Below are positions 32,144 to 55,728 of a stretch of DNA of 64,000 bases, in pieces. Source of the stretch: Escherichia coli (GTDB lineage: Bacteria; Pseudomonadota; Gammaproteobacteria; Enterobacterales; Enterobacteriaceae). Positions within the stretch are counted from its first letter, which is position 1. Each line of letters starts with the position of its first letter. The stretch lies in the NCBI RefSeq assembly GCF_044324785.1, contig NZ_CP172127.1; one strand, given 5' to 3'. A program made the position numbers and the translations under genes. The notes beneath the pieces are model-generated. The model was not told where the DNA came from and searched no databases. It saw only the letters and a program-made list of their open reading frames with translations.

Positions 32144-32806
32144 TTAAATCGACGTTCTGCCAAACGCTCCCAGCCAGTCCTGTTCAAACTTCGCCACAGC
32201 GGCATCAACCGCCGGATAGCTAATCATCTGTTGTGCCACATCCAGCGGCAGAGTAATTGATTCACACCCTGCCAGTAAGCAGTCCAGCGCCTGACGCGGG
32301 GTTTTGAAACTCGCGGCTAACACTTTCGCCTGCGGCGCATGCATTTTCAATAACTGGTGTAAGTCGGTCACAGTCTGAATACCGCTACCGCCCTGAGCAT
32401 CAATACGATTAACGTAAGGCGCAACATATTCCGCACCTGCCAGCGCCGACAGCAGCCCTTGTGCTGCGCCATATACCGCGGTTCCCAGCGTCGGAATCCC
32501 TTCCGCTTTTAACATCTTAATAGCTGCCAGCCCCTCGGCGGTCACCGGAACTTTCACCACGATATCCGCAATAATAGAACGCAATTTACGTGCGTCATTC
32601 ACCATCCCTTCAGCAGTGGTAGCCATTACCTGGGCAAACAGACGCCCCTGACCGCCCATCGCTTCATGAAGTTCCGGAAGCACAACCTCCAGCGGTTTTT
32701 TACCCGCGGCGATAATGCTTGGGTTAGTGGTCACACCCGCCAGCGGAAAAATACGTGACAGCGCCTTCACCGCAACAACGTCTGAAGTATCCAGATACAG
32801 TTCCAT
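32144..32806 (-). CDS. fsaA: Fructose-6-phosphate aldolase 1 FsaA (220 aa)
   Basis: ORF from [46 protein letters not shown] matches FsaA (transaldolase-like). Confidence 0.9.
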
Positions 32807-32936
32807 AACCATCCTCAAAATGTACTTTTTGTCTGAATGTAGACTATCACGGGAAAACTCTCTGAACAGTTGACGCACATCAATCTAACTTTCATTCGAA
32901 AGTATTTTAATGTTTGAACGAAACAGAGAGGCAACT

Positions 32937-33836
32937 ATGATTTTCAATATTCAGCGCTACTCGACCCATGATGGCCCCGGTATCCGCACGGTCGTATTTC
33001 TTAAAGGCTGTTCGCTGGGCTGCCGCTGGTGTCAGAACCCGGAAAGCCGCGCCCGCACGCAGGATCTGCTGTATGACGCACGTCTGTGTCTGGAAGGCTG
33101 CGAGCTGTGCGCTAAGGCCGCGCCGGAAGTGATTGAGCGCGCGCTGAATGGCTTGCTTATTCATCGGGAAAAGTTAACCCCGGAGCATCTGACAGCGTTA
33201 ACCGACTGCTGCCCGACACAGGCGTTAACCGTATGTGGTGAAGTGAAAAGCGTTGAGGAGATAATGAAGACCGTTCTGCGCGATAAACCGTTTTACGATC
33301 GCAGCGGCGGCGGCTTAACGCTTTCTGGCGGTGAACCCTTTATGCAGCCGGAAATGGCGATGGCGCTACTGCAAGCCAGCCACGAGGCCGGCATTCATAC
33401 TGCGGTAGAAACCTGTCTGCATGTGCCGTGGAAATATATCACCCCTTCTCTGCCCTATATCGATCTGTTTCTTGCCGATTTAAAACACGTTGCCGACGCA
33501 CCGTTTAAACAGTGGACCGACGGTAATGCCGCCAGGGTGCTGGATAACCTGAAAAAACTCGCCGCAGCGGGCAAAAAAATCATTATCCGCGTGCCGCTGA
33601 TTCAGGGCTTTAATGCCGACGAAACCTCTGTAAAAGCCATTACCGATTTTGCCGCCGACGAGCTGCACGTTGGCGAAATTCATTTCCTGCCCTACCACAC
33701 GCTGGGCATCAACAAATATCACTTACTTAATCTGCCCTATGACGCCCCGGAAAAACCGCTTGATGCGCCAGAACTGCTCGACTTTGCCCAGCAGTATGCC
33801 TGCCAGAAAGGGTTAACCGCGACCTTACGAGGATAA
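32937..33836 (+). CDS. pflE: Glycyl-radical enzyme activating protein PflE (YbiY), radical SAM, about 299 aa
   Basis: [36 protein letters not shown]... with CxxxCxxC radical-SAM motif and a ferredoxin-like cysteine cluster. Confidence 0.85.
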
Positions 33837-33841
33837 CAACC

Positions 33842-36274
33842 ATGACCACACTGAAACTGGATACGCTCAGCGACCGCATTAAAGCGCACAAAAATGCGCT
33901 GGTGCATATTGTGAAACCGCCGGTCTGTACCGAGCGCGCGCAGCACTATACTGAGATGTATCAACAACATCTCGATAAGCCGATCCCGGTACGTCGCGCG
34001 CTGGCGCTGGCGCATCACCTGGCGAATCGCACCATCTGGATCAAGCACGATGAGTTGATCATTGGCAACCAGGCAAGCGAAGTTCGCGCCGCGCCGATCT
34101 TCCCGGAATATACCGTCTCCTGGATCGAAAAAGAGATTGATGATCTGGCGGATCGTCCGGGTGCTGGTTTTGCGGTGAGCGAAGAGAACAAACGTGTTCT
34201 GCATGAAGTGTGCCCTTGGTGGCGCGGTCAGACGGTACAGGATCGCTGCTACGGCATGTTTACCGATGAGCAAAAAGGTCTGCTGGCGACCGGAATCATT
34301 AAAGCGGAAGGCAATATGACCTCCGGCGATGCGCACCTGGCGGTGAATTTCCCGCTACTGCTGGAAAAAGGTCTTGATGGTCTGCGCGAGAAAGTAGCGG
34401 AACGTCGCTCGCGCATCAACCTGACGGTGCTGGAAGATTTGCACGGCGAGCAGTTCCTGAAAGCGATTGATATCGTGCTGGTGGCAGTCAGTGAACACAT
34501 TGAACGTTTCGCTGCCCTGGCGCGTGAAATGGCAGCCACTGAAACCCGCGAAAGCCGTCGCGATGAACTGCTGGCGATAGCAGAAAACTGCGATCTTATC
34601 GCCCACCAGCCGCCGCAGACTTTCTGGCAGGCGCTGCAACTGTGCTACTTCATCCAGTTGATTTTGCAGATCGAATCTAACGGTCACTCGGTATCGTTTG
34701 GTCGTATGGACCAGTATCTCTACCCGTACTATCGCCGCGACGTTGAACTGAACCAGACACTGGATCGTGAACACGCCATCGAGATGCTGCATAGCTGCTG
34801 GTTAAAATTGCTGGAAGTGAACAAAATCCGCTCCGGCTCGCACTCGAAAGCCTCTGCGGGAAGTCCGCTGTATCAGAACGTCACCATTGGCGGACAAAAT
34901 CTGGTTGATGGTCAACCAATGGACGCGGTGAATCCACTCTCTTACGCGATCCTCGAATCCTGCGGTCGCCTGCGTTCTACTCAGCCTAACCTCAGCGTGC
35001 GTTACCATGCAGGAATGAGCAACGATTTCCTCGACGCCTGCGTACAGGTGATCCGCTGCGGCTTCGGGATGCCGGCGTTCAACAACGACGAAATCGTCAT
35101 CCCGGAATTTATTAAACTCGGTATTGAACCGCAGGACGCTTACGACTATGCAGCGATTGGTTGTATCGAAACCGCCGTCGGTGGCAAATGGGGCTATCGC
35201 TGTACCGGCATGAGCTTTATCAACTTCGCCCGCGTGATGCTGGCGGCGCTGGAAGGCGGGCGTGATGCCACCAGCGGCAAAGTGTTCCTGCCACAAGAAA
35301 AAGCGTTGTCAGCGGGTAACTTCAACAACTTCGATGAAGTAATGGACGCATGGGATACGCAAATCCGTTACTACACGCGTAAATCAATCGAAATCGAATA
35401 TGTCGTCGACACCATGCTGGAAGAGAACGTACACGATATTCTCTGCTCGGCGCTGGTGGATGACTGTATTGAGCGAGCGAAAAGTATCAAGCAAGGCGGC
35501 GCTAAATATGACTGGGTTTCTGGCCTGCAGGTCGGCATTGCTAACCTCGGCAACAGCCTGGCGGCAGTGAAGAAACTGGTATTTGAACAGGGCGCGATTG
35601 GTCAGCAACAGCTGGCTGCCGCACTGGCGGATGACTTCGACGGCCTGACTCACGAGCAGCTGCGTCAGCGGCTGATTAACGGTGCGCCTAAGTACGGCAA
35701 CGACGATGATACTGTCGATACGCTGCTGGCTCGCGCTTATCAGACCTATATCGACGAACTAAAACAGTACCATAACCCGCGCTATGGTCGTGGTCCGGTT
35801 GGCGGCAATTATTACGCGGGTACGTCATCTATCTCCGCTAACGTACCCTTTGGCGCGCAGACGATGGCAACGCCGGACGGGCGTAAAGCCCACACCCCGC
35901 TGGCAGAAGGCGCTAGTCCGGCCTCCGGTACTGATCATCTTGGCCCTACTGCGGTCATTGGCTCAGTGGGTAAACTGCCTACGGCCGCGATTCTCGGCGG
36001 CGTGTTGCTCAACCAGAAACTGAATCCGGCAACGCTGGAGAACGAATCTGACAAGCAGAAACTGATGATCCTGCTACGCACCTTCTTTGAAGTGCATAAA
36101 GGCTGGCATATTCAGTACAACATCGTTTCCCGCGAAACGCTGCTGGAAGCGAAAAAACATCCGGATCAGTACCGCGATCTGGTAGTGCGTGTCGCGGGTT
36201 ATTCCGCCTTCTTCACTGCGCTCTCTCCAGACGCACAGGACGATATCATCGCCCGTACTGAACATATGCTGTAA
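33842..36274 (+). CDS. pflF: Glycyl-radical enzyme PflF (YbiW), PFL-like, 810 aa
   Basis: 810-aa ORF with the C-terminal glycyl-radical motif ([10 protein letters not shown]) and PFL-like domain; matches YbiW. Confidence 0.9.
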
Positions 36275-36278
36275 CTCT

Positions 36279-36306
36279 TCCGCCCGGCGGCCACCGTCGC
36301 CGGGCC
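36279..36306 (+). terminator. Hairpin after pflF (gcccggcggccaccgtcgccgggc)
   Basis: GC-rich inverted repeat directly after the pflF stop. Confidence 0.45.
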
Positions 36307-36419
36307 AAATCATTCACATCATCAATTTCATCCTCGCTTTCATTCGAAATATAATTTGTGCTCTGCGTCACATTGTTATTACACTGTTACGGTTTCATTT
36401 TCGAGCCAGGAGCACACCT

Positions 36420-37235
36420 ATGAGCGTAAAAGTTATCGTCACAGACATGGACGGTACTTTTCTTAACGACGCCAAAACGTACAACCAACCACGTTTTATG
36501 GCGCAATATCAGGAACTGAAAAAGCGCGGCATTAAGTTCGTTGTCGCCAGCGGTAATCAGTATTACCAGCTTATTTCGTTCTTTCCTGAGCTAAAGGATG
36601 AGATCTCTTTTGTCGCGGAAAACGGCGCACTGGTTTACGAACATGGCAAGCAACTGTTCCACGGCGAACTGACCCGACATGAATCGCGGATTGTTATTGG
36701 CGAGTTGCTAAAAGATAAGCAACTCAATTTTGTCGCCTGCGGTCTGCAAAGTGCATATGTCAGCGAAAACGCCCCCGAAGCATTCGTCGCACTGATGGCA
36801 AAACACTACCATCGCCTGAAACCTGTAAAAGATTATCAGGAGATTGACGACGTACTGTTCAAGTTTTCGCTCAACCTGCCGGATGAACAAATCCCGTTAG
36901 TGATCGACAAACTGCACGTAGCGCTCGACGGCATTATGAAGCCGGTTACCAGTGGTTTTGGCTTTATCGACCTGATTATTCCTGGCCTGCATAAAGCGAA
37001 TGGTATTTCGCGGTTACTGAAACGCTGGGATCTGTCACCGCAAAATGTGGTAGCGATTGGCGACAGCGGTAACGATGCGGAGATGCTGAAAATGGCGCGT
37101 TATTCCTTTGCGATGGGCAATGCTGCGGAAAACATTAAACAAATCGCCCGTTACGCTACCGATGATAATAATCATGAAGGCGCGCTGAATGTGATTCAGG
37201 CGGTGCTGGATAACACATCCCCTTTTAACAGCTGA
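36420..37235 (+). CDS. ybiV: Sugar phosphatase YbiV (SupH), HAD/Cof family, 271 aa
   Basis: [51 protein letters not shown]...; paralogous to YbjI in this same window; the upstream ORF-track extension from 36189 is rejected. Confidence 0.9.
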
Positions 37236-37386
37236 CCTCTCTACCGGAGCTATGCGCTCCGGTTTTCCCTTCTTTTTACATCCTTTACATCACATCAAAT
37301 CATTAAACTTCCATTAACTTATTTATAACTTATATTGTCACATGCAAATCAGCATAGTTTCGAATGAAAGTTAATGCGAGGTGGTT

Positions 37387-38652
37387 ATGGCTTCTACTTT
37401 TACCAGCGACACATTGCCTGCCGATCACAAAGCAGCTATCCGTCAGATGAAGCACGCGCTGCGGGCGCAGCTTGGCGACGTCCAGCAGATCTTTAATCAG
37501 CTAAGCGATGACATTGCCACGCGAGTGGCTGAAATCAACGCACTCAAAGCACAGGGCGATGCCGTCTGGCCGGTGCTGTCTTATGCCGATATCAAAGCAG
37601 GTCATGTTACTGCAGAGCAGCGCGAACAAATTAAACGTCGCGGTTGTGCGGTGATAAAAGGCCATTTCCCCCGCGAACAAGCGCTAGGCTGGGATCAGTC
37701 GATGCTGGACTATCTGGACCGCAACCGCTTTGACGAGGTCTACAAAGGCCCCGGCGATAATTTCTTCGGGACACTCAGCGCTTCACGTCCCGAGATTTAC
37801 CCCATCTACTGGTCGCAGGCGCAAATGCAGGCCCGCCAGAGTGAAGAAATGGCGAATGTGCAGTCGTTTCTCAATCGTCTGTGGACATTTGAAAGTGATG
37901 GAAAGCAATGGTTTAACCCGGATGTGAGCGTCATCTACCCTGACCGTATCCGCCGCCGTCCGCCCGGAACGACCTCCAAAGGTCTTGGAGCGCATACCGA
38001 CTCCGGGGCGCTGGAACGCTGGCTGCTTCCAGCGTATCAGCACGTTTTCGCCAACGTCTTTAATGGCAATCTGGCGAAATACGATCCCTGGCATGCGGCA
38101 CATCGTACGGAAGTTGAAGAGTACACGGTGGACAACACCACCAAATGTTCCGTGTTTCGGACATTCCAGGGCTGGACAGCGCTCTCTGATATGCTGCCTG
38201 GTCAGGGGTTGCTGCACGTCGTGCCCATTCCTGAAGCCATGGCGTACGTACTGTTACGTCCGCTGCTTGATGATGTGCCGGAGGATGAACTGTGCGGCGT
38301 AGCGCCCGGAAGAGTGTTGCCGGTATCAGAGCAATGGCATCCACTGTTAATTGAGGCGTTAACCAGCATTCCAAAACTCGAGGCCGGAGACTCCGTCTGG
38401 TGGCACTGCGACGTCATCCATTCCGTTGCCCCCGTTGAAAATCAACAGGGTTGGGGCAACGTGATGTACATTCCTGCGGCACCGATGTGCGAGAAAAATC
38501 TTGCCTACGCGCACAAGGTGAAGGCCGCACTGGAAAAAGGCGCATCGCCGGGCGACTTCCCGCGCGAGGACTATGAAACAAACTGGGAAGGACGCTTTAC
38601 GCTTGCCGACCTCAACATTCACGGTAAGCGAGCGTTGGGAATCGACAGCTGA
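37387..38652 (+). CDS. ybiU: YbiU, DUF1479 protein (2OG-oxygenase-like), 421 aa
   Basis: ORF from MASTFTSDTLPADHKAAIRQMKHALRAQL... matches YbiU. Confidence 0.85.
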   Translation: MASTFTSDTLPADHKAAIRQMKHALRAQLGDVQQIFNQLSDDIATRVAEINALKAQGDAVWPVLSYADIKAGHVTAEQREQIKRRGCAVIKGHFPREQALGWDQSMLDYLDRNRFDEVYKGPGDNFFGTLSASRPEIYPIYWSQAQMQARQSEEMANVQSFLNRLWTFESDGKQWFNPDVSVIYPDRIRRRPPGTTSKGLGAHTDSGALERWLLPAYQHVFANVFNGNLAKYDPWHAAHRTEVEEYTVDNTTKCSVFRTFQGWTALSDMLPGQGLLHVVPIPEAMAYVLLRPLLDDVPEDELCGVAPGRVLPVSEQWHPLLIEALTSIPKLEAGDSVWWHCDVIHSVAPVENQQGWGNVMYIPAAPMCEKNLAYAHKVKAALEKGASPGDFPREDYETNWEGRFTLADLNIHGKRALGIDS

Positions 38653-39722
38653 GTGTCGTACAGCCCTTCCCGTTCCACGGCGGTGTTCCCTTTTCCTGGG
38701 CGAACCCGCCGCACTGACTCCCGCACCGCCAATCGTCCGTGCAGCAGCAGCGAGCCCACCGGAGCATCCGGGCGAATCAGCCGCTGTTGCAACATTTGCA
38801 CCGCTTCATTGCCTAGCTCATCGCGTGGCACATGCACAGCCGTCAGGGGAACATCCTCGATTGCCGCAAGGTTAAAGCCGTCGATACTCATCACCGAGAC
38901 ATCCTGTGGTACGCGCAGACCACGACGATGTAGCGCATTTACCGTTCCCGCCGCCATAAAATCCCCGCCGACCAGAAACGCCGTCGGCAACGTCTTGCCA
39001 TTGGCGGCATCCAGCCACGCTCCGACCTTTTCTTCCGCTTCTTTAGCGCTAAAACTGCTGATATTCAGCAAATGACGGTCATGGTGAAAGGCCAGATTAT
39101 GCTGACGCCATGATTCTTTAATCCCTGCAAACCGCTGCTCCATAGTGTAGCGGCGCAGGCACATCACATTCATCACCTCCCGGTGACCCATTTCAAACAG
39201 ATAGCGGGCGGCGAACGCGCCAATTAACCGATGGTCCGGCGCAATCGCCGGGAGGCGCATTCGTTCATCACGGCAGTTGATCAGCACACAAGGCTTAGCG
39301 AGATCGGCGGCCAGATCATGGATGTGCGGATCGTCAATCCCCAGCAGGATCGCCGCCTGCGTATCTGCTTCATTCATCCGCGAGAGAAATAGCGCGGGAT
39401 CGCTGTCAAACTCCTCCAGCGCGCAGTAACGCAGCCGCACTTCATGCGGCGATAACGCTTTGCTGATGCTCTGGATCACACGGTAATAAAAGATATCAGA
39501 TCGTTGGTCAAAAGCGCGTTGCGGCGCGAAAATAATCAGGTTGTTCAGCAACATACGACCTGCTGCCATGCCATCCATCACGCCCAACTCACGCGCGCAG
39601 GCCAGCACCTGTTCGCGAGCGCGTGCACTGGTATTCGCTTTGCCAGCCAGCACCCGCGAAACCGTACTCGGCGATAGCCCGGTACGTGCGGCGATATCGG
39701 CGATTTTCAGCTTCTTGTCCAT
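38619..39722 (-). CDS. LacI-family transcriptional regulator (accessory, not in K-12 at this position), about 367 aa with an unusually long C-terminal tail
   Basis: MDKKLKIADIAARTGLSPSTVSRVLAGKANTSARAREQVLACARELGV... is a LacI-type HTH followed by a periplasmic-binding-protein-like sugar domain; its 3' end overlaps the ybiU 3' end by 34 nt. Confidence 0.7.
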   Translation of the reverse strand: MDKKLKIADIAARTGLSPSTVSRVLAGKANTSARAREQVLACARELGVMDGMAAGRMLLNNLIIFAPQRAFDQRSDIFYYRVIQSISKALSPHEVRLRYCALEEFDSDPALFLSRMNEADTQAAILLGIDDPHIHDLAADLAKPCVLINCRDERMRLPAIAPDHRLIGAFAARYLFEMGHREVMNVMCLRRYTMEQRFAGIKESWRQHNLAFHHDRHLLNISSFSAKEAEEKVGAWLDAANGKTLPTAFLVGGDFMAAGTVNALHRRGLRVPQDVSVMSIDGFNLAAIEDVPLTAVHVPRDELGNEAVQMLQQRLIRPDAPVGSLLLHGRLAVRESVRRVRPGKGNTAVEREGLYDTQLSIPNARLP

Positions 39723-40016
39723 TTTGTGATCTGCCTCTAATTCGGAAATGACAGAATTTTCATGAGCAAAAAAGCCCATTCTGTCTGGCATTAAATCCAT
39801 TTCAGTAATGTATATCAGTCACTCATGGAAAAACGTGCACAAAACCCGCTTTCTTTCGCTTTTAGGGTCTCTTACTGTGAATTGGTAGAACAACTTCCAT
39901 ACAAAAATAATGGAAAAACGAACAACAAAGACTTTATTTATCAAAAAGTTAAAAGTGGTGTGACAACTCCATTCTGACGTTGCCGCACAAACCCTATACC
40001 ATTCTGTGGAGTGCAT
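39723..40016. promoter_or_regulatory. Divergent control region between the LacI-family regulator and the MFS-GH31 genes
   Basis: 294-bp AT-rich, ORF-free intergenic region between divergently oriented genes; position inferred, no operator identified. Confidence 0.4.
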
Positions 40017-41318
40017 ATGAGTCAGGGTATCAATAACGATATGACTGCCAGTAAACCGCGCCATATCGTCAAAAATCTGCGTTGGTGGATACTGGTCCTT
40101 TTTTTGCTCGGTGTTACTGTCAACTACATCACGCGTAACTCGCTGGGTATTCTCGCCCCCGAACTGAAAAGCAGCCTGGGGATTACCACCGAACAATATT
40201 CCTGGATTGTAGGTGCTTTCCAGCTCGCCTATACCCTATTCCAACCGTTGTGCGGATGGCTGATTGACGTCATTGGCCTCAAACTGGGCTTTATGATCTG
40301 CGCGGGACTGTGGGCACTGGCCTGTCTGATGCATGCGGGGGCGGGAAACTGGGTACATCTGGCGCTGTTGCGCTTCTTTATGGGCGGTGCGGAAGCCGCA
40401 GCAACCCCAGCAAACGCCAAAACCATCGGTGAATGGTTTCCAAAATCAGAACGCCCGATCGCCGCAGGCTGGGCAGGCGTCGGTTTTTCCATCGGTGCCA
40501 TGCTGGCCCCACCGATTATCTATTTTGCCCACGCTTCATTCGGCTGGCAGGGTGCATTTATGTTCACTGGCATCCTGGCGATGCTGTGGGTCGTGCTGTG
40601 GTGGGCGTTCTATCACAGCCCGGATAAGCATCCTAACCTCAGCAAAGCCGAGCTGGACTTTATTCGCCAGGATAACGAAGCGCCCCCGGTCAAGTTACCC
40701 TTTCTGACCGCACTGAAAACCGTGGGCAAAAATAAACGCTTTTACGGTATCGCTATCCCGGCCTTTATGGCAGAACCGGCGTGGGCGGTGATGAGTTTCT
40801 GGGTTCCGCTATACCTGTCCAAAACCTATGGCATGGACCTGAAGCAGATCGCATTATTCGCCTGGTTGCCGTTCCTCGCCGCTGATCTTGGCAGTATTGC
40901 CAGCGGCTATCTGACCAAACTTTACACCCGCCTGTTTGGGCTGAGTCGTGTGAACTCCGTTGTCGCATCATCGGTCAGTGGCGCATTCCTGATGGTTTCG
41001 CTGGCGGTGATGGCCTTTACCAATAACCCGTATATCGCCATCGTCCTTATCTCCATCGGCGGCTTCGGTCACCAGATCATCTCCTGCATGCTAAGCGCAC
41101 TGGTGGTGGAATCCTTCGACAAAGGTCAGATGGCCACTGTTAACGGCATGCGCGGTTCTGCCGCGTGGATCGCAAGTTTCCTGTTCTCCCTGATAATCGG
41201 GGTTACCGCAGACAAAATCGGCTTTAACCCCCTGTTTATCGCCATGGGCTTCTTTGACCTGATTGGCGCTTTCTTCCTGGTCACCTTTATTGCTGAACGT
41301 CGCGCAAAACGCGCCTGA
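40017..41318 (+). CDS. MFS transporter resembling the anion:cation symporter family (ExuT/GudP/DgoT-like), about 433 aa
   Basis: 12-TM ORF with N-terminal sequence ...NYITRNSLGILAPELKSSLGITTEQYSWIVGAFQLAYTLFQP typical of ACS-family transporters; RBS ggag 6 nt before the ATG at 40017. Confidence 0.7.
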   Translation: MSQGINNDMTASKPRHIVKNLRWWILVLFLLGVTVNYITRNSLGILAPELKSSLGITTEQYSWIVGAFQLAYTLFQPLCGWLIDVIGLKLGFMICAGLWALACLMHAGAGNWVHLALLRFFMGGAEAAATPANAKTIGEWFPKSERPIAAGWAGVGFSIGAMLAPPIIYFAHASFGWQGAFMFTGILAMLWVVLWWAFYHSPDKHPNLSKAELDFIRQDNEAPPVKLPFLTALKTVGKNKRFYGIAIPAFMAEPAWAVMSFWVPLYLSKTYGMDLKQIALFAWLPFLAADLGSIASGYLTKLYTRLFGLSRVNSVVASSVSGAFLMVSLAVMAFTNNPYIAIVLISIGGFGHQIISCMLSALVVESFDKGQMATVNGMRGSAAWIASFLFSLIIGVTADKIGFNPLFIAMGFFDLIGAFFLVTFIAERRAKRA

Positions 41319-41332
41319 GAGTGGATGTAAAC

Positions 41333-43696
41333 ATGAAAACGCTGAAAAACTGGACCCTGCACAAACAGTCTGCCCACCACGTTGAACTGCTGGTCGATGG
41401 CCAGCATATCCTGTGCCTGTACGTGCTGGAAGAAAATCTGTTCCGCGTGCTGTTAAAACGCAAAGGCGAGCTGGCGCTGGATCGCACCTGGAGCATTGCT
41501 CCGGCGCAGGATGTGCCATGGGAAGGGCGCAGCCGCGAAGATCTCAGCGGCTTTAGCCTGCCCGCGTGGACATTGATCCAGCACGACGACACCGTGGTTA
41601 TCGCCACCGAGTCACTGCGTGTCACCGTTCACCAGCCGCTGTGGCTGGAGTGGCACTATCGTAACAACGAAGGCGAATGGCTGCCGTTGGTGAATGACCG
41701 CCCGACCAGCGCTTATCTGCTGAATGCCCACGGCGATGGCGTGGCACACTATCAGAGCCGTCGTAAAGATGAACGCTTTTATGGCCTCGGAGATAAAGCC
41801 GGCGACCTGCAACGCAACGGTAAACGTTACGAGATGCGTAACCTCGACGCGATGGGCTACAACGCCGTTAGTACTGACCCGCTGTACAAACACATTCCAT
41901 TCACCATCACCCGCCGCGATGACATTAGCTTCGGCCTGTTTTATGACAACCTCAGCAGCTGCTGGCTGGATCTGGGCAACGAGATCGACAACTACCACAC
42001 CGCCTATCGCCGCTGGCAGGCGGAAGCGGGTGATATCGACTACTACCTGTTTACCGGCGAACGCGTACTTGATATCACCAAAGCCTTCGTACGCCTGACC
42101 GGAAAAACCCTGTTCGGACCGAAATGGAGCCTGGGCTACAGCGGTTCAACTATGCACTACACCGATGCGCCGGACGCACAAAATCAGTTGATGAACTTTA
42201 TCCGCCTGTGTGAAGAACATGCAATTCCCTGCGATTCGTTCCAGCTCTCTTCCGGTTATACCTCAATTAACGGCAAACGCTATGTGTTCAACTGGAACTA
42301 CGACAAAGTGCCGCAGCCGAAAGTGATGAGCCAGGCATTTCACAATGCTGGTTTGCACCTGGCCGCCAATATCAAGCCGTGCCTGTTGCAGGATCACCCA
42401 CGCTATAACGAAGTGGCAGAAAGAGGACTGTTCATCCGTGATTCAGAAACAGATGAACCAGAACGTTCCAGCTTCTGGGATGACGAAGGTTCTAACCTCG
42501 ACTTTACTAATCCGCAGACCATCCAGTGGTGGCAGGAAGGCGTGACCACACAGCTTCTGGAGATGGGTATCGACTCCACCTGGAACGACAACAACGAATT
42601 CGAAGTATGGGACGGTGAAGCACGCTGTCACGGCTTTGGTCAGACGATCGCGATCAAACATATTCGCCCAGTGATGCCACTGCTGATGATGCGAGCCTCG
42701 ATGGAAGCCCAGCAGCGTTTCGCTCCGGAAAAACGTCCGTACTTGATCTCCCGCTCCGGCTGCGCGGGAATGCAGCGCTACGTGCAGACCTGGAGTGGCG
42801 ATAACCGCACTAGCTGGGACACTCTGCGCTACAACACCCGCATGGGTCTGGGGATGAGCCTCTCCGGGTTGTATAACCTCGGTCACGACGTCGGCGGTTT
42901 CTCCGGTGATAAACCGGACCCGGAACTGTTTGTACGCTGGGTACAAAACGGCGTGATGCATCCGCGCTTTACGATTCACTCATGGAACGATGACCATACC
43001 GTAAACGAACCGTGGATGTATCCGGGCGTCACTCCGGCGATCCGCAGCGCTATTGAGTTGCGCTATCGCCTGCTGCCCTACTTTTATACCCTGATGTGGC
43101 AGGCATACGCCGATGATGAACCAATGCTACGTCCGACTTTCCTTGACCACGAGCACGACGTTCAGACTTTTGAAGAGTGTGATGACTTCCTGCTTGGTCG
43201 CGATATTTTGGTTGCCAGCGTCGTAGAGCAAGGCGAGCGCCAGCGCCGTGTATGGCTGCCAGATAACGAAACTGGCTGGTACGATTTCTACAACGGCGAA
43301 TGGTTCAGTGGCGGTCAGTGGATCACCCTCGACGCACCGCTGGAGAAACTGCCGCTGATGGTGCGTGCCGGGGCTGGTCTACCGCTCAGCAAACGCATCA
43401 CCTATGTGAGCGCAGAACAAGACGATACCCGCGAACTGAAACTGTTCCCGCTGAAAGGTGTGGGCACAACGTCCGGCCTGCTGTTTGAAGACGATGGCGA
43501 AAGCTGGGGCTACCAAACTGGTAATGCGCTTTGGGTGGAATGGGAAATGGTTTGCGATGGGGCGACCATCAACCTGAAAGTCAACGCGCGCGGGGATTAT
43601 CGTCCTGCATGGAGTGCACTGAAAGTGTCATTACCATTGGAAGAAAAACGCACGCTGCTGGTCAATGGTGTTGAAGGGAGTGAATGGATGCGTTAA
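41333..43696 (+). CDS. Glycoside hydrolase family 31 alpha-glycosidase (about 787 aa)
   Basis: Carries GH31 hallmark motifs: TWNDNNEF (catalytic nucleophile region), RSGCAGMQRY...WSGDN (acid/base region), GHDVGGF; tightly linked (2-14 bp) downstream of the transporter. Confidence 0.75.
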   Translation: MKTLKNWTLHKQSAHHVELLVDGQHILCLYVLEENLFRVLLKRKGELALDRTWSIAPAQDVPWEGRSREDLSGFSLPAWTLIQHDDTVVIATESLRVTVHQPLWLEWHYRNNEGEWLPLVNDRPTSAYLLNAHGDGVAHYQSRRKDERFYGLGDKAGDLQRNGKRYEMRNLDAMGYNAVSTDPLYKHIPFTITRRDDISFGLFYDNLSSCWLDLGNEIDNYHTAYRRWQAEAGDIDYYLFTGERVLDITKAFVRLTGKTLFGPKWSLGYSGSTMHYTDAPDAQNQLMNFIRLCEEHAIPCDSFQLSSGYTSINGKRYVFNWNYDKVPQPKVMSQAFHNAGLHLAANIKPCLLQDHPRYNEVAERGLFIRDSETDEPERSSFWDDEGSNLDFTNPQTIQWWQEGVTTQLLEMGIDSTWNDNNEFEVWDGEARCHGFGQTIAIKHIRPVMPLLMMRASMEAQQRFAPEKRPYLISRSGCAGMQRYVQTWSGDNRTSWDTLRYNTRMGLGMSLSGLYNLGHDVGGFSGDKPDPELFVRWVQNGVMHPRFTIHSWNDDHTVNEPWMYPGVTPAIRSAIELRYRLLPYFYTLMWQAYADDEPMLRPTFLDHEHDVQTFEECDDFLLGRDILVASVVEQGERQRRVWLPDNETGWYDFYNGEWFSGGQWITLDAPLEKLPLMVRAGAGLPLSKRITYVSAEQDDTRELKLFPLKGVGTTSGLLFEDDGESWGYQTGNALWVEWEMVCDGATINLKVNARGDYRPAWSALKVSLPLEEKRTLLVNGVEGSEWMR

Positions 43697-54973: not shown

Positions 54974-55692
54974 TTGAATTTAAAAACGTCTCCAAGCATT
55001 TTGGTCCAACCCAGGTGCTGCACAATATCGATTTGAACATTGCTCAGGGCGAAGTCGTGGTGATTATCGGGCCGTCCGGTTCCGGTAAATCGACCCTGCT
55101 GCGCTGCATCAACAAACTGGAAGAAATCACCTCCGGCGATCTGATTGTCGATGGCCTGAAGGTTAACGATCCGAAAGTTGACGAGCGCCTGATTCGCCAG
55201 GAAGCAGGTATGGTGTTCCAGCAGTTTTACCTCTTCCCGCATCTGACGGCGCTGGAAAACGTCATGTTTGGTCCGCTACGCGTGCGTGGCGCGAACAAAG
55301 AAGAGGCGGAAAAACTGGCGCGTGAGCTGCTGGCGAAAGTCGGCCTGGCAGAACGCGCTCACCACTACCCTTCCGAGCTTTCTGGTGGTCAACAGCAGCG
55401 TGTGGCGATCGCACGCGCGCTGGCGGTGAAGCCGAAAATGATGCTGTTTGATGAACCGACTTCCGCTCTTGACCCGGAACTGCGCCATGAAGTGCTGAAG
55501 GTTATGCAGGATCTGGCTGAAGAAGGGATGACGATGGTGATCGTGACACACGAAATCGGTTTTGCCGAGAAAGTAGCTTCGCGCCTGATCTTTATCGACA
55601 AAGGCCGGATTGCGGAAGATGGCGATCCGCAGGTGTTGATCAAGAACCCACCGAGCCAGCGCTTGCAGGAATTTTTGCAGCACGTCTCTTAA
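54970..55692 (+). CDS. glnQ: Glutamine ABC transporter ATP-binding protein GlnQ (240 aa)
   Basis: [48 protein letters not shown]... Walker A and [15 protein letters not shown]; start overlaps the glnP stop. Confidence 0.93.
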
Positions 55693-55699
55693 CTTCTCA

Positions 55700-55728
55700 G
55701 CCTCCCTTTCCCCCGAAAGGGAGGCACA
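55700..55728 (+). terminator. Terminator hairpin after glnQ (cctcccttt cccccg aaagggagg)
   Basis: Inverted repeat seen directly after the glnQ stop. Confidence 0.55.

Follow-up and report, generated by a model that had tools for sequence, protein, structure and literature searches.

1,5-Anhydroglucitol (1,5-AG) is a dietary polyol (sugar alcohol) and a clinical marker of glycaemia. According to the account given in the review PMC12441222 of the work of Ma et al. 2024, the Escherichia coli enzyme YbiW converts 1,5-anhydroglucitol-6-phosphate (1,5-AG6P) to 1-deoxy-fructose-6-phosphate, and PflD forms the same product from 1,5-anhydromannitol-6-phosphate (1,5-AM6P). The same account states that both substrates arise by PTS phosphorylation, that the YbiW and PflD reactions need a glycyl radical, and that the pathways make 1,5-AG a growth substrate for E. 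coli, although most probably in strictly anaerobic culture only (PMC12441222). The original report is that of Ma et al. (J Am Chem Soc 2024;146:26187; pmid 39283600). Crystal structures are present in the PDB for YbiW (8id7, 8yjn) and PflD (8yjo). The biology of the ybiY-ybiW pair is therefore already known and its substrate is no longer an open question. The first-pass annotation of the DNA analysed here had held that the substrate was not firmly established; this is contradicted by the AG6P assignment (Ma et al. 2024), which is literature of the kind that the annotation had itself named as decisive against it.

E. coli PflD/PflC is like YbiW in enzyme class, in the GCxE loop, in the sequence RVAGYSAFF, in its product and in having an FSA aldolase partner (fsaB). 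PflD is nevertheless only 39% identical to YbiW, has H-D after the Cys loop where YbiW has T-G, and is encoded in the frw-pflDC / ptsA-fsaB-gldA cluster with PTS genes of its own, whereas such genes are missing from the ybiW locus. The B12-independent glycerol dehydratase of Clostridium butyricum (1r8w), propanediol dehydratase (5i2a), CutC and HypD share with YbiW the fold, a Cys with a Glu at +2, the equivalent of His165 and the sequence NGHS. The activases of such dehydratase-type glycyl-radical enzymes (GREs) resemble YbiY in being long and in carrying a ferredoxin-like insert. The YbiW substrate is a phosphorylated cyclic ether, in contrast to the small diol or amine used by the dehydratase-type GREs. 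PflB and PflA resemble YbiW and YbiY in belonging to the glycyl-radical superfamily, in the RVxGY motif and in radical-SAM activation, but PflB is 25% identical to YbiW, carries a Cys-Cys pair and catalyses other chemistry, and PflA lacks the Cys-rich insert found in YbiY.

The locus considered here lies in the window, that is, the whole stretch of 64,000 nucleotides of E. coli contig NZ_CP172127.1 (assembly GCF_044324785.1) that was analysed. ybiY (pflE), encoding the radical-SAM GRE activase of 299 aa, occupies 32937..33836 on the plus strand (the ORF list gives 32937 for the ATG and 33834-33836 for the stop codon), and ybiW (pflF), encoding the GRE of 810 aa, follows at 33842..36274 (+). 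The ORFs lie exactly where the first-pass annotation had placed an 810-aa GRE with the motif RVAGYSAF and a radical-SAM activase, and RefSeq annotates the same two genes in this genome as ybiY and ybiW. Five nucleotides separate the genes, the ribosome-binding site (RBS) of ybiW lies inside the final ybiY codons, and both genes are intact and translationally coupled. An old 308-aa ybiY model corresponds to a longer in-frame ORF starting at 32910. The start at 32937 is preferred because it is preceded by the RBS GAGAGG (32926-32931, +), because orthologues open with MIFNIQRYS, and because the ATG at 32910 lies upstream of the predicted transcription start (~32918).

The genes had been described as core, and indeed the ybiY-ybiW segment is present, at 95-99% identity, in 5425 of 5426 complete E. 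coli genomes; YbiW is 86-93% identical among genera of the Enterobacterales, and the window sequence is the head of a 90% cluster with 20,781 members. In one Yersinia pseudotuberculosis genome the activase is apparently split into two ORFs. Compared with K-12, the window YbiW is identical at 806 of 810 residues (99.5%) and YbiY at 297 of 299. The YbiW differences, K-12 to window, are E184K, M246I, H474R and D769E, none of them in the Cys or Gly loop, and at the first three the window residue is that of the homologue 6xs4; those in YbiY are T111K and A169T. The K-12 locus has the same neighbours and the same three operator copies described below, and the intergenic region upstream of ybiY is identical at 128 of 130 bases.

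In a domain search YbiW carries the PFL-like domain (PF02901, E=3.5e-209) and the Gly_radical domain (PF01228, E=1.6e-32), and YbiY the Radical_SAM domain (E=2.3e-13). YbiW passes the model TIGR01774 (PFL2/glycerol dehydratase family) with 1408.9 bits against a cutoff of 678.2, and YbiY passes TIGR02494 with 370.5 bits against 174. Along its whole length the window YbiW matches 8id7/8yjn ('Probable dehydratase YbiW'), with 1855 bits. Database names are still generic ('probable dehydratase' in the PDB, 'glycyl radical protein' in RefSeq). The equivalog models for glycerol/propanediol dehydratase, CutC and HypD are all failed widely by YbiW, and NCBIfam holds no equivalog model for the 1,5-anhydroglucitol-6-phosphate function. 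In YbiY, the CX3CX2C motif is formed by C25, C29 and C32, and a ferredoxin-like insert rich in Cys contains C51, C55, C58, C91, C92 and C100. The key residues of YbiW are Gly786, the radical site within R783-V-A-G786-Y (which fits RVxG[FWY]), Cys441, the thiyl residue, Glu443 and His165. The Cys loop reads G440-C441-I442-E443 (GCxE), with one Cys and no Cys-Cys pair; C441 is invariant in an alignment of YbiW, PflD and PflB, and comparison of the active site with that of PflB, a check proposed in the first-pass annotation, places Gly-Cys in YbiW opposite the Cys-Cys of PflB, with a Glu at +2 in YbiW that PflB lacks. C441 and E443 align with C433 and E435 of glycerol dehydratase, and H165 with its H164, whereas Asp447 of that enzyme (1r8w numbering) is not conserved in YbiW, where Thr/Gly are aligned. 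The single Cys441 together with Glu443, in place of a Cys-Cys pair, supports the view that YbiW is an enzyme of the dehydratase type and not a pyruvate formate-lyase. The names pflE and pflF are historical and misleading, since the enzyme is not a formate-lyase.

Both fsaA and ybiV had been named as neighbours of the pair, which is borne out: fsaA (32144..32806, minus strand) is divergent from ybiY and lies 130 bp upstream, and ybiV lies 145 bp downstream of ybiW. The fsaA product scores 449 bits against NF009296 (cutoff 306), is named fsa in RefSeq and differs from that of K-12 by four substitutions; FsaA is reported to cleave the 1-deoxy-fructose-6-phosphate made by YbiW. The divergent pairing of fsa with ybiY-ybiW is kept in 54 of 68 ybiY-carrying Enterobacteriaceae loci, and also in Yersinia, Mixta and Brenneria, in unrelated chromosomal surroundings. 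ybiYW occurs without an adjacent fsaA in some genera, e.g. Klebsiella, Raoultella and Trabulsiella.

The region between fsaA and ybiY contains an FNR-type box, TTGACgcacATCAA (32870..32883, unstranded), whose centre lies at approximately -41.5 from the predicted ybiY start and approximately -42.5 from the putative fsaA start. The predicted -10 element of the ybiY-ybiW promoter, TTTAAT (32906..32911, +), falls within a block, (T/A)ATTTAAT, that is conserved across relatives, and the geometry of the FNR box fits it. TTGAY-N4-RTCAA is found upstream of ybiY in all 68 Enterobacteriaceae loci, with a freely varying spacer, and is a perfect consensus in Yersinia and Brenneria. Neither this pattern (0.34 expected) nor a CRP-like pattern (0.99 expected) is enriched in the window, so that the case for each is one of position and cross-species conservation, and it is on this footing that we infer FNR binding at the ybiY box. 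Among the papers searched for FNR control of ybiY/ybiW none mentioned ybiY together with FNR, the reports on ybiW concerning anaerobic or in-vivo abundance only.

An exact 13-mer, CTTTCATTCGAAA, precedes ybiY, ybiV and ybiU, with three copies in the window against none expected. The first copy, CTTTCATTCGAAAG (32889..32902, +), is the inverted repeat CTTTC-N4-GAAAG and sits between the FNR box and the -10 element, at approximately -29 to -16 of ybiY. Of 68 loci, 64 have an exact TTTCATTCGAAA at -47 to -50 relative to ybiY and the other four are one base off, and the operator block is at least 95% conserved over 55 distinct intergenic sequences. The second copy (36337..36349, +) adjoins a perfect TATAAT (36350-36355) before ybiV and is exact, in either orientation, in 59 of 74 loci, the others having palindromic variants, e.g. 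TTTCATATGAAA. The third copy (37358..37370, minus strand) lies in the ybiU 5' leader, 17 nt before the ATG, and is exact in 72 of 80 loci and off by one or two bases in the other eight; in Mixta, too, the motif precedes the ybiU homologue.

The repressor that uses the 13-mer as its operator is probably YciT, of the DeoR type, a candidate suggested by RNA-seq of a yciT deletion, by ChIP-exo, and by the motif together with YciT homologues beside the module elsewhere. In the published RNA-seq, deletion of yciT changed expression (log2) of ybiY by +7.7, ybiU by +7.0, ybiW by +3.5, ybiV by +2.2 and fsaA by +1.8, and a published table assigns YciT ChIP-exo peaks to ybiY/fsaA and ybiV; both data sets are for K-12 and not for the present strain. 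In Yersinia, Mixta and Brenneria a YciT homologue (57-60% identity) is encoded beside the module, and in those three genera the motif is found before ybiY, ybiU and the regulator gene itself. After conversion of the ChIP-exo coordinates from NC_000913.2 by +777, the peaks assigned to ybiY and ybiV fall 100-150 bp away from the 13-mers in current coordinates, and the only peak that contains a similar palindrome, that at ybiO, is weak (S/N 2.66) and within a terminator-like hairpin; direct proof of YciT at the 13-mer is therefore not claimed. The 13-mer was also sought at the pflD/fsaB and pflB loci and is absent from both, so that the motif does not place the two anhydro-sugar pathways under common control. 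The strong response of ybiY to the yciT deletion bears out the description of the pair as cryptic as far as tight repression in laboratory conditions is concerned, but in no other sense.

Eight nucleotides past the ybiW stop, a GC-rich hairpin (36282..36305, +) with arms GCCCGGCG and CGCCGGGC and no T-run has the same stem as in K-12 and a different loop. It was not called by a terminator scan and, as judged from its sequence, probably acts weakly as a terminator or else stabilises the 3' end. ybiV (36420..37235, +), encoding a HAD-IIB (Cof-type) sugar phosphatase identical to K-12 YbiV, has its own promoter and is followed by a canonical terminator (37243-37263). A putative CRP-like box, TGTGCtctgcgTCACA (36357..36372, unstranded), lies in the ybiV leader or promoter, and TGTG-N8-CACA, with a variable spacer, occurs in the majority of the 15 divergent sequences listed from upstream of ybiV. 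ybiU (37387..38652, +) encodes a DUF1479/Gig2-like protein (PF07350, E=1.4e-154) and is co-regulated with the radical-enzyme operon in the K-12 yciT-deletion RNA-seq. The PDB entries 2dbi, 2dbn, 2csg and 4rgk are all labelled hypothetical; H203-x-D205 and H340/H345 of YbiU would fit a 2-His-1-carboxylate pattern, and an HxD...H arrangement is typical of Fe(II)/2-oxoglutarate oxygenases. Downstream of ybiU this strain carries a LacI-MFS-GH31 trio, its MFS transporter being of the anion type, that is absent in K-12. A strain-specific insertion was considered and rejected, for the trio occupies the same site in 61 of 80 Enterobacteriaceae species loci, which means that it has been lost from most E. 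coli. The idea that the GH31 protein is an alpha-glucan lyase making an anhydro-sugar precursor was unsupported, its nearest relatives being alpha-glucosidases.

We consider it very probable that ybiY-ybiW is the known AG6P glycyl-radical operon, with catalytic, FsaA and regulatory steps as follows. Under anoxia, YbiY, with S-adenosylmethionine and a [4Fe-4S] cluster, would abstract a hydrogen from Gly786 of YbiW. The radical would move to Cys441, the thiyl radical would abstract a substrate hydrogen, and the substrate radical would expel the ring oxygen, with C1-O5 cleavage assisted by Glu443 and His165. Return of the hydrogen by Cys441 would give 1-deoxy-D-fructose-6-phosphate, which FsaA would split into glyceraldehyde-3-phosphate and hydroxyacetone. 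As far as the published account extends, YbiW activity, structures and growth on 1,5-AG are the findings of other workers; what is said here of individual residues and of FsaA is our reading of the work of Ma et al. and of GRE dehydratase chemistry. As judged from sequence, conservation and published omics, transcription of ybiY-ybiW would require two signals: an anaerobic one from FNR at a class II site at -41.5, and departure of the DeoR-type repressor YciT from the CTTTC-N4-GAAAG operator between the FNR box and the -10 element, the inducer presumably being a sugar phosphate of the pathway. The two further operator copies would control ybiV and ybiU, and since they are found at those genes we propose that fsaA, ybiYW, ybiV and ybiU form one small regulon. 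A broader reading, which we regard as rather unlikely, is that the radical operon could be the anaerobic arm of a larger YciT regulon for anhydro-sugar phosphates, with YbiU as an O2-dependent counterpart that could, e.g., hydroxylate C1 of AG6P to give glucose-6-phosphate, and with YbiV as an AG6P/deoxy-fructose-6-phosphate phosphatase that could prevent toxic build-up. What is seen is co-regulation and the conserved operators, which bear on the control of these genes and not directly on substrates.

That YbiW and YbiY are a third pyruvate (or 2-ketoacid) formate-lyase and its activase is the view implied by the K-12 RefSeq label 'putative pyruvate formate lyase' and by older papers that count ybiW among the alternative PFLs, and YbiW does have the PFL-like fold and the Gly-radical domain. 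It is nonetheless extremely improbable, given the low identity to PflB, the Gly-Cys in place of Cys-Cys with Glu two residues on, a score of 160.8 against a cutoff of 994.2 with the formate C-acetyltransferase model TIGR01255 and of 582 against 1109 with NF007437, and the different substrate, AG6P, given in the published account. The dehydratase-type assignment leaves room for another main physiological substrate, such as a small diol or the phosphate of a different anhydro- or deoxy-sugar, with AG6P as one accepted substrate, or for a role in detoxification of AG6P as an accidental product of glucose uptake by the PTS. Among relatives with solved structures and known function, the nearest are the dehydratases of glycerol (E=6e-164) and propanediol (E=1e-150); the regulon includes a phosphatase, YbiV, and the oxygenase-like YbiU, neither of which a simple catabolic route would call for; and in mammals AG6P is known to arise as a toxic by-product. 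Such a role seems very unlikely, however, in view of the growth of E. coli on 1,5-AG via the pathway stated in the published account, of the Thr/Gly in place of the glycerol dehydratase Asp447, and of the tight and conserved pairing with an aldolase that accepts a C6 keto-phosphate, which fits sugar-phosphate catabolism.

Very low expression in standard culture (ybiY baseMean 23) and the apparently split activase of the one Y. pseudotuberculosis genome could be taken to mean that ybiYW is a silent evolutionary remnant without current function. Intact ORFs in all but one of the complete E. coli genomes, the identity of YbiW among genera, the base-for-base conservation of the promoter elements in 55 distinct species-level sequences, and the published increase of YbiW protein in Shigella dysenteriae in the piglet gut weigh against a remnant; the conservation data effectively refute it, and we leave it virtually no probability.

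The preferred assignment is thus that of the AG6P operon. What is added here is an incremental and testable control map, comprising the FNR box, the three copies of the 13-bp operator and the likely YciT repressor. In the published route of radical-mediated glycolysis by which gut Enterobacteria ferment 1,5-anhydroglucitol, the pair itself provides the entry enzyme.

The ybiY-ybiW pair lies on the plus strand, where a six-frame ORF list places open reading frames of 308 aa at 32910-33836 and 810 aa at 33842-36274. The ATG at 32937 is internal to the former, is preceded by GAGAGG at 32926-32931 and is also the start used by RefSeq (299 aa); the YbiY orthologues of Mixta and Brenneria share this initiating Met. 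A gap of 5 nt separates the ybiY stop from the start of ybiW, whose ribosome-binding site falls within the final ybiY codons; the two genes are thus translationally coupled as a single unit. They are flanked by fsaA (32144-32806, minus strand) and ybiV (36420-37235), and a megablast search found the ybiY-ybiW segment in 5,425/5,426 complete E. coli genomes at 95-99% identity. The observation made in the first-pass annotation is confirmed in all details, including gene positions, neighbours, core status and the RVAGYSAF motif of YbiW (Gly786). In Yersinia pseudotuberculosis (GCA_900460685.1; homologous locus L005, 8098-8996) the activase is called as two ORFs of 135 and 164 aa, against 299 aa here, which suggests that ybiY is frameshifted in that genome; ybiW there is intact.

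Domains, motifs and family models likewise uphold the identification of a glycyl-radical enzyme with its radical-SAM activase. YbiY has the CX3CX2C motif (C25/C29/C32), passes the activase model TIGR02494 and carries a Cys-rich insert of ~70 residues (C51, C55, C58, C91, C92, C100) that is not found in PflA. YbiW contains PFL-like and Gly_radical domains and passes the NCBIfam PFL2/glycerol dehydratase subfamily model (1408.9 bits; cutoff 678.2). In alignments, the radical glycine, the catalytic C441 and R783 are common to the window YbiW, K-12 YbiW, PflD and PflB. Formate-lyase chemistry requires a Cys-Cys pair. The active-site comparison proposed in the first-pass annotation shows this pair in PflB, whereas in YbiW and PflD it is replaced by Gly-Cys, with Glu at +2; moreover, YbiW scores below all NCBIfam equivalog models tried, including both formate C-acetyltransferase models, and membership of the formate-lyase family is ruled out on both counts. 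HMMER alignment to the Clostridium glycerol dehydratase 1r8w places C441/E443 on C433/E435 and H165 on H164, but Asp447 of 1r8w is Thr/Gly in YbiW, which excludes a glycerol dehydratase; catalytic residues are common to YbiW and the glycerol and propanediol dehydratases, but the substrate pocket is not. Together, the Gly-Cys-x-Glu loop, the matching catalytic residues and the replaced Asp447 identify YbiW, at the level of alignment, as a dehydratase-type glycyl-radical enzyme.

The claim that the YbiW substrate is not firmly established is outdated, and the interpretation of the first-pass annotation is thus partly supported. According to the account of Ma et al. (J Am Chem Soc 2024;146:26187) in a 2025 review (PMC12441222), a PTS phosphorylates 1,5-anhydroglucitol (1,5-AG) and 1,5-anhydromannitol, and the 6-phosphates are converted to 1-deoxy-fructose-6-phosphate through YbiW and PflD in a glycyl-radical-dependent manner. 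A defined substrate, 1,5-AG 6-phosphate, is therefore on record for YbiW, as relayed in that review, which adds that the pathways enable growth on 1,5-AG in E. coli and many gut bacteria, most likely under strictly anaerobic conditions only. Literature of this kind is what the first-pass annotation had named as its refutation. In a 2025 preprint that cites Ma et al., YbiW and PflD are still simply listed as E. coli glycyl-radical enzymes. The window pair is E. coli ybiYW itself and not a relative: YbiW differs from its K-12 counterpart at four positions (E184K, M246I, H474R, D769E), and a homologue, 6xs4 (95% identical to YbiW), has the window residue at three of them. Two PDB structures are available for E. 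coli YbiW (8id7, 8yjn) and a single one for PflD (8yjo). PflD/PflC shares class and product with YbiW, but identity to PflD is only 39%; in contrast to the pflD locus, ybiW has no linked PTS genes, and its regulatory motif is absent from the pflD locus.

Yersinia, Mixta and Brenneria retain the complete divergent fsa / ybiY-ybiW core in chromosomal surroundings unrelated to those of E. coli, and YbiW identity across Enterobacterales is 86-93%. FsaA or FsaB reportedly splits 1-deoxy-fructose-6-phosphate into glyceraldehyde-3-phosphate and hydroxyacetone, the latter being said to be reduced to 1,2-propanediol by GldA. The conserved core fits an aldolase using the product of the radical enzyme. 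In Klebsiella, Raoultella, Trabulsiella, Phytobacter and some Kosakonia and Enterobacter, ybiY-ybiW-ybiV-ybiU occurs with no fsaA homologue (at least 50% identity) beside ybiY; these loci (handles L055, L060, L070, L073, L078-L080, L083-L085, L088 and L090) keep the FNR box and the operator.

A 13-mer, CTTTCATTCGAAA, precedes ybiY (32889..32902), ybiV (36337..36349) and ybiU (37358..37370), with exactly three copies in the 64 kb and none in 100 shuffles. K-12 carries the same three copies, and a K-12 search found none at the pflD and pflB loci. The candidate binder is the DeoR-type repressor YciT, for which ChIP-exo peaks have been reported at ybiY/fsaA and ybiV, with a palindromic motif given in a figure only; deletion of yciT raised ybiY by 7.7, ybiU by 7.0, ybiW by 3.5, ybiV by 2.2 and fsaA by 1.8 log2 units (Gao et al., NAR 2021; PMC8464067). 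The peaks (NC_000913.2, +777 to current numbering) are 100-150 bp off the 13-mers: that of ybiY (K-12 863650-863677, window ~32771-32798) lies within the first fsaA codons and that of ybiV (K-12 859232-859265, window ~37183-37216) within the last ybiV codons. Possible explanations are extra sites, looping of the DNA from one operator to another, or the way in which peaks were called. The sole peak with a CTTTC-N4-GAAAG palindrome, at ybiO, is weak and lies inside a terminator-like hairpin. About 150 bp of the glnQ-ybiO spacer (K-12 845589-845740) are missing in the window strain near 55692-55725, where the adjoining hairpin, CCTCCCTTTC-CCCC-GAAAGGGAGG, has a loop unlike the K-12 copy.

A YbiU-query scan with one genome per species gave 80 Enterobacteriaceae loci, in which the exact 12-mer was found upstream of ybiY in 64/68 (-47 to -50 from the start codon; the other four one base off), of ybiV in 59/74 (either orientation, -78 to -83) and of ybiU in 72/80 (-20 to -35; the other eight one or two bases off). 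Most of the remaining ybiV loci carry variants, among them the perfect palindrome TTTCATATGAAA, and one (L066) has no recognisable site. With at most one mismatch, the motif also precedes the Mixta ybiU homologue, the DeoR gene of Yersinia and the ybiY genes of Yersinia, Mixta and Brenneria. A DeoR-family regulator with 57-60% identity to E. coli YciT adjoins the module in these three genera; E. coli yciT lies at a separate chromosomal site.

Downstream of ybiW is a perfect 8-bp GC hairpin lacking a T-run, and ybiV has its own predicted promoter, in which a perfect TATAAT directly adjoins the operator and has a CRP-like box (TGTGCtctgcgTCACA, 36357-36372) just downstream of it. Most of the 15 divergent ybiV upstream sequences displayed preserve the TGTG-N8-CACA pattern of this box, whose spacer varies, and its placement matches no standard class I or class II activator site. 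A canonical terminator ends ybiV, and ybiU (37387-38652) is served by a further predicted promoter and carries the operator in its leader. These three transcription units are consistent with the unequal derepression values. The putative ybiU -35 (37297-37302) reads TTCCAT in the window, against TTGCAT in K-12 and the majority of other species, a difference that may reduce expression of ybiU in this strain. YbiU is a DUF1479/Gig2-like protein with several crystal structures, every one labelled hypothetical, and no functional assignment was found in the literature searched. Its H203-x-D205 and H340/H345 fit the 2-His-1-carboxylate pattern of a putative Fe(II)/2-oxoglutarate oxygenase triad, and its gene is co-regulated with the radical-enzyme operon, given the shared operator and the derepression in the yciT deletion. 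An unlikely proposal is that both YbiU and YbiV use the same anhydro-sugar phosphates as the radical enzyme, with YbiU serving as its oxygen-dependent counterpart.

Between ybiU and ybiT lies a sugar module (38619-43696) of a LacI-family regulator (38619-39779, minus strand), an MFS transporter of the anion-type (D-galactonate) family (40017-41318) and a GH31 glycoside hydrolase closest to alpha-glucosidases (41333-43696). It is missing in K-12 and present in only 576/5426 complete E. coli genomes. The same trio directly follows ybiU in 61/80 Enterobacteriaceae species loci (84-92% identity), which rules out a recent insertion, so the module has been lost by most E. coli.

A TTGAY-N4-RTCAA box (32870..32883) is found in all 68 loci, 5 nt ahead of the ybiY operator, with invariant half-sites, a freely variable spacer and a perfect FNR consensus in Yersinia and Brenneria. 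Among 55 distinct fsaA-ybiY spacers, conservation is at least 95% over GTTGA....TCAA-ATAA-CTTTCATTCGAAAGTA-TTTAAT. With TTTAAT (32906-32911) as -10, the predicted ybiY start is ~32918, the FNR box is centred at -41.5, a class II position, and the operator spans -29 to -16. The box would also be ~-42.5 from a putative fsaA -10 (GATAGT, minus strand); the operator would then be well upstream of that promoter, in agreement with fsaA responding far less to YciT. Taken alone, the window shows no enrichment of the FNR pattern, and no report of FNR control of ybiY was found in the literature searched. YbiW protein of Shigella has been reported to increase in the piglet gut. The ybiYW finding is already known, and the modest additions made here are the map of its control region and, as a question, the roles of YbiU and YbiV. 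Judged from these sites, the ybiY promoter would combine an anoxia signal from FNR with a substrate signal from YciT, a dual control that would suit an oxygen-labile enzyme.
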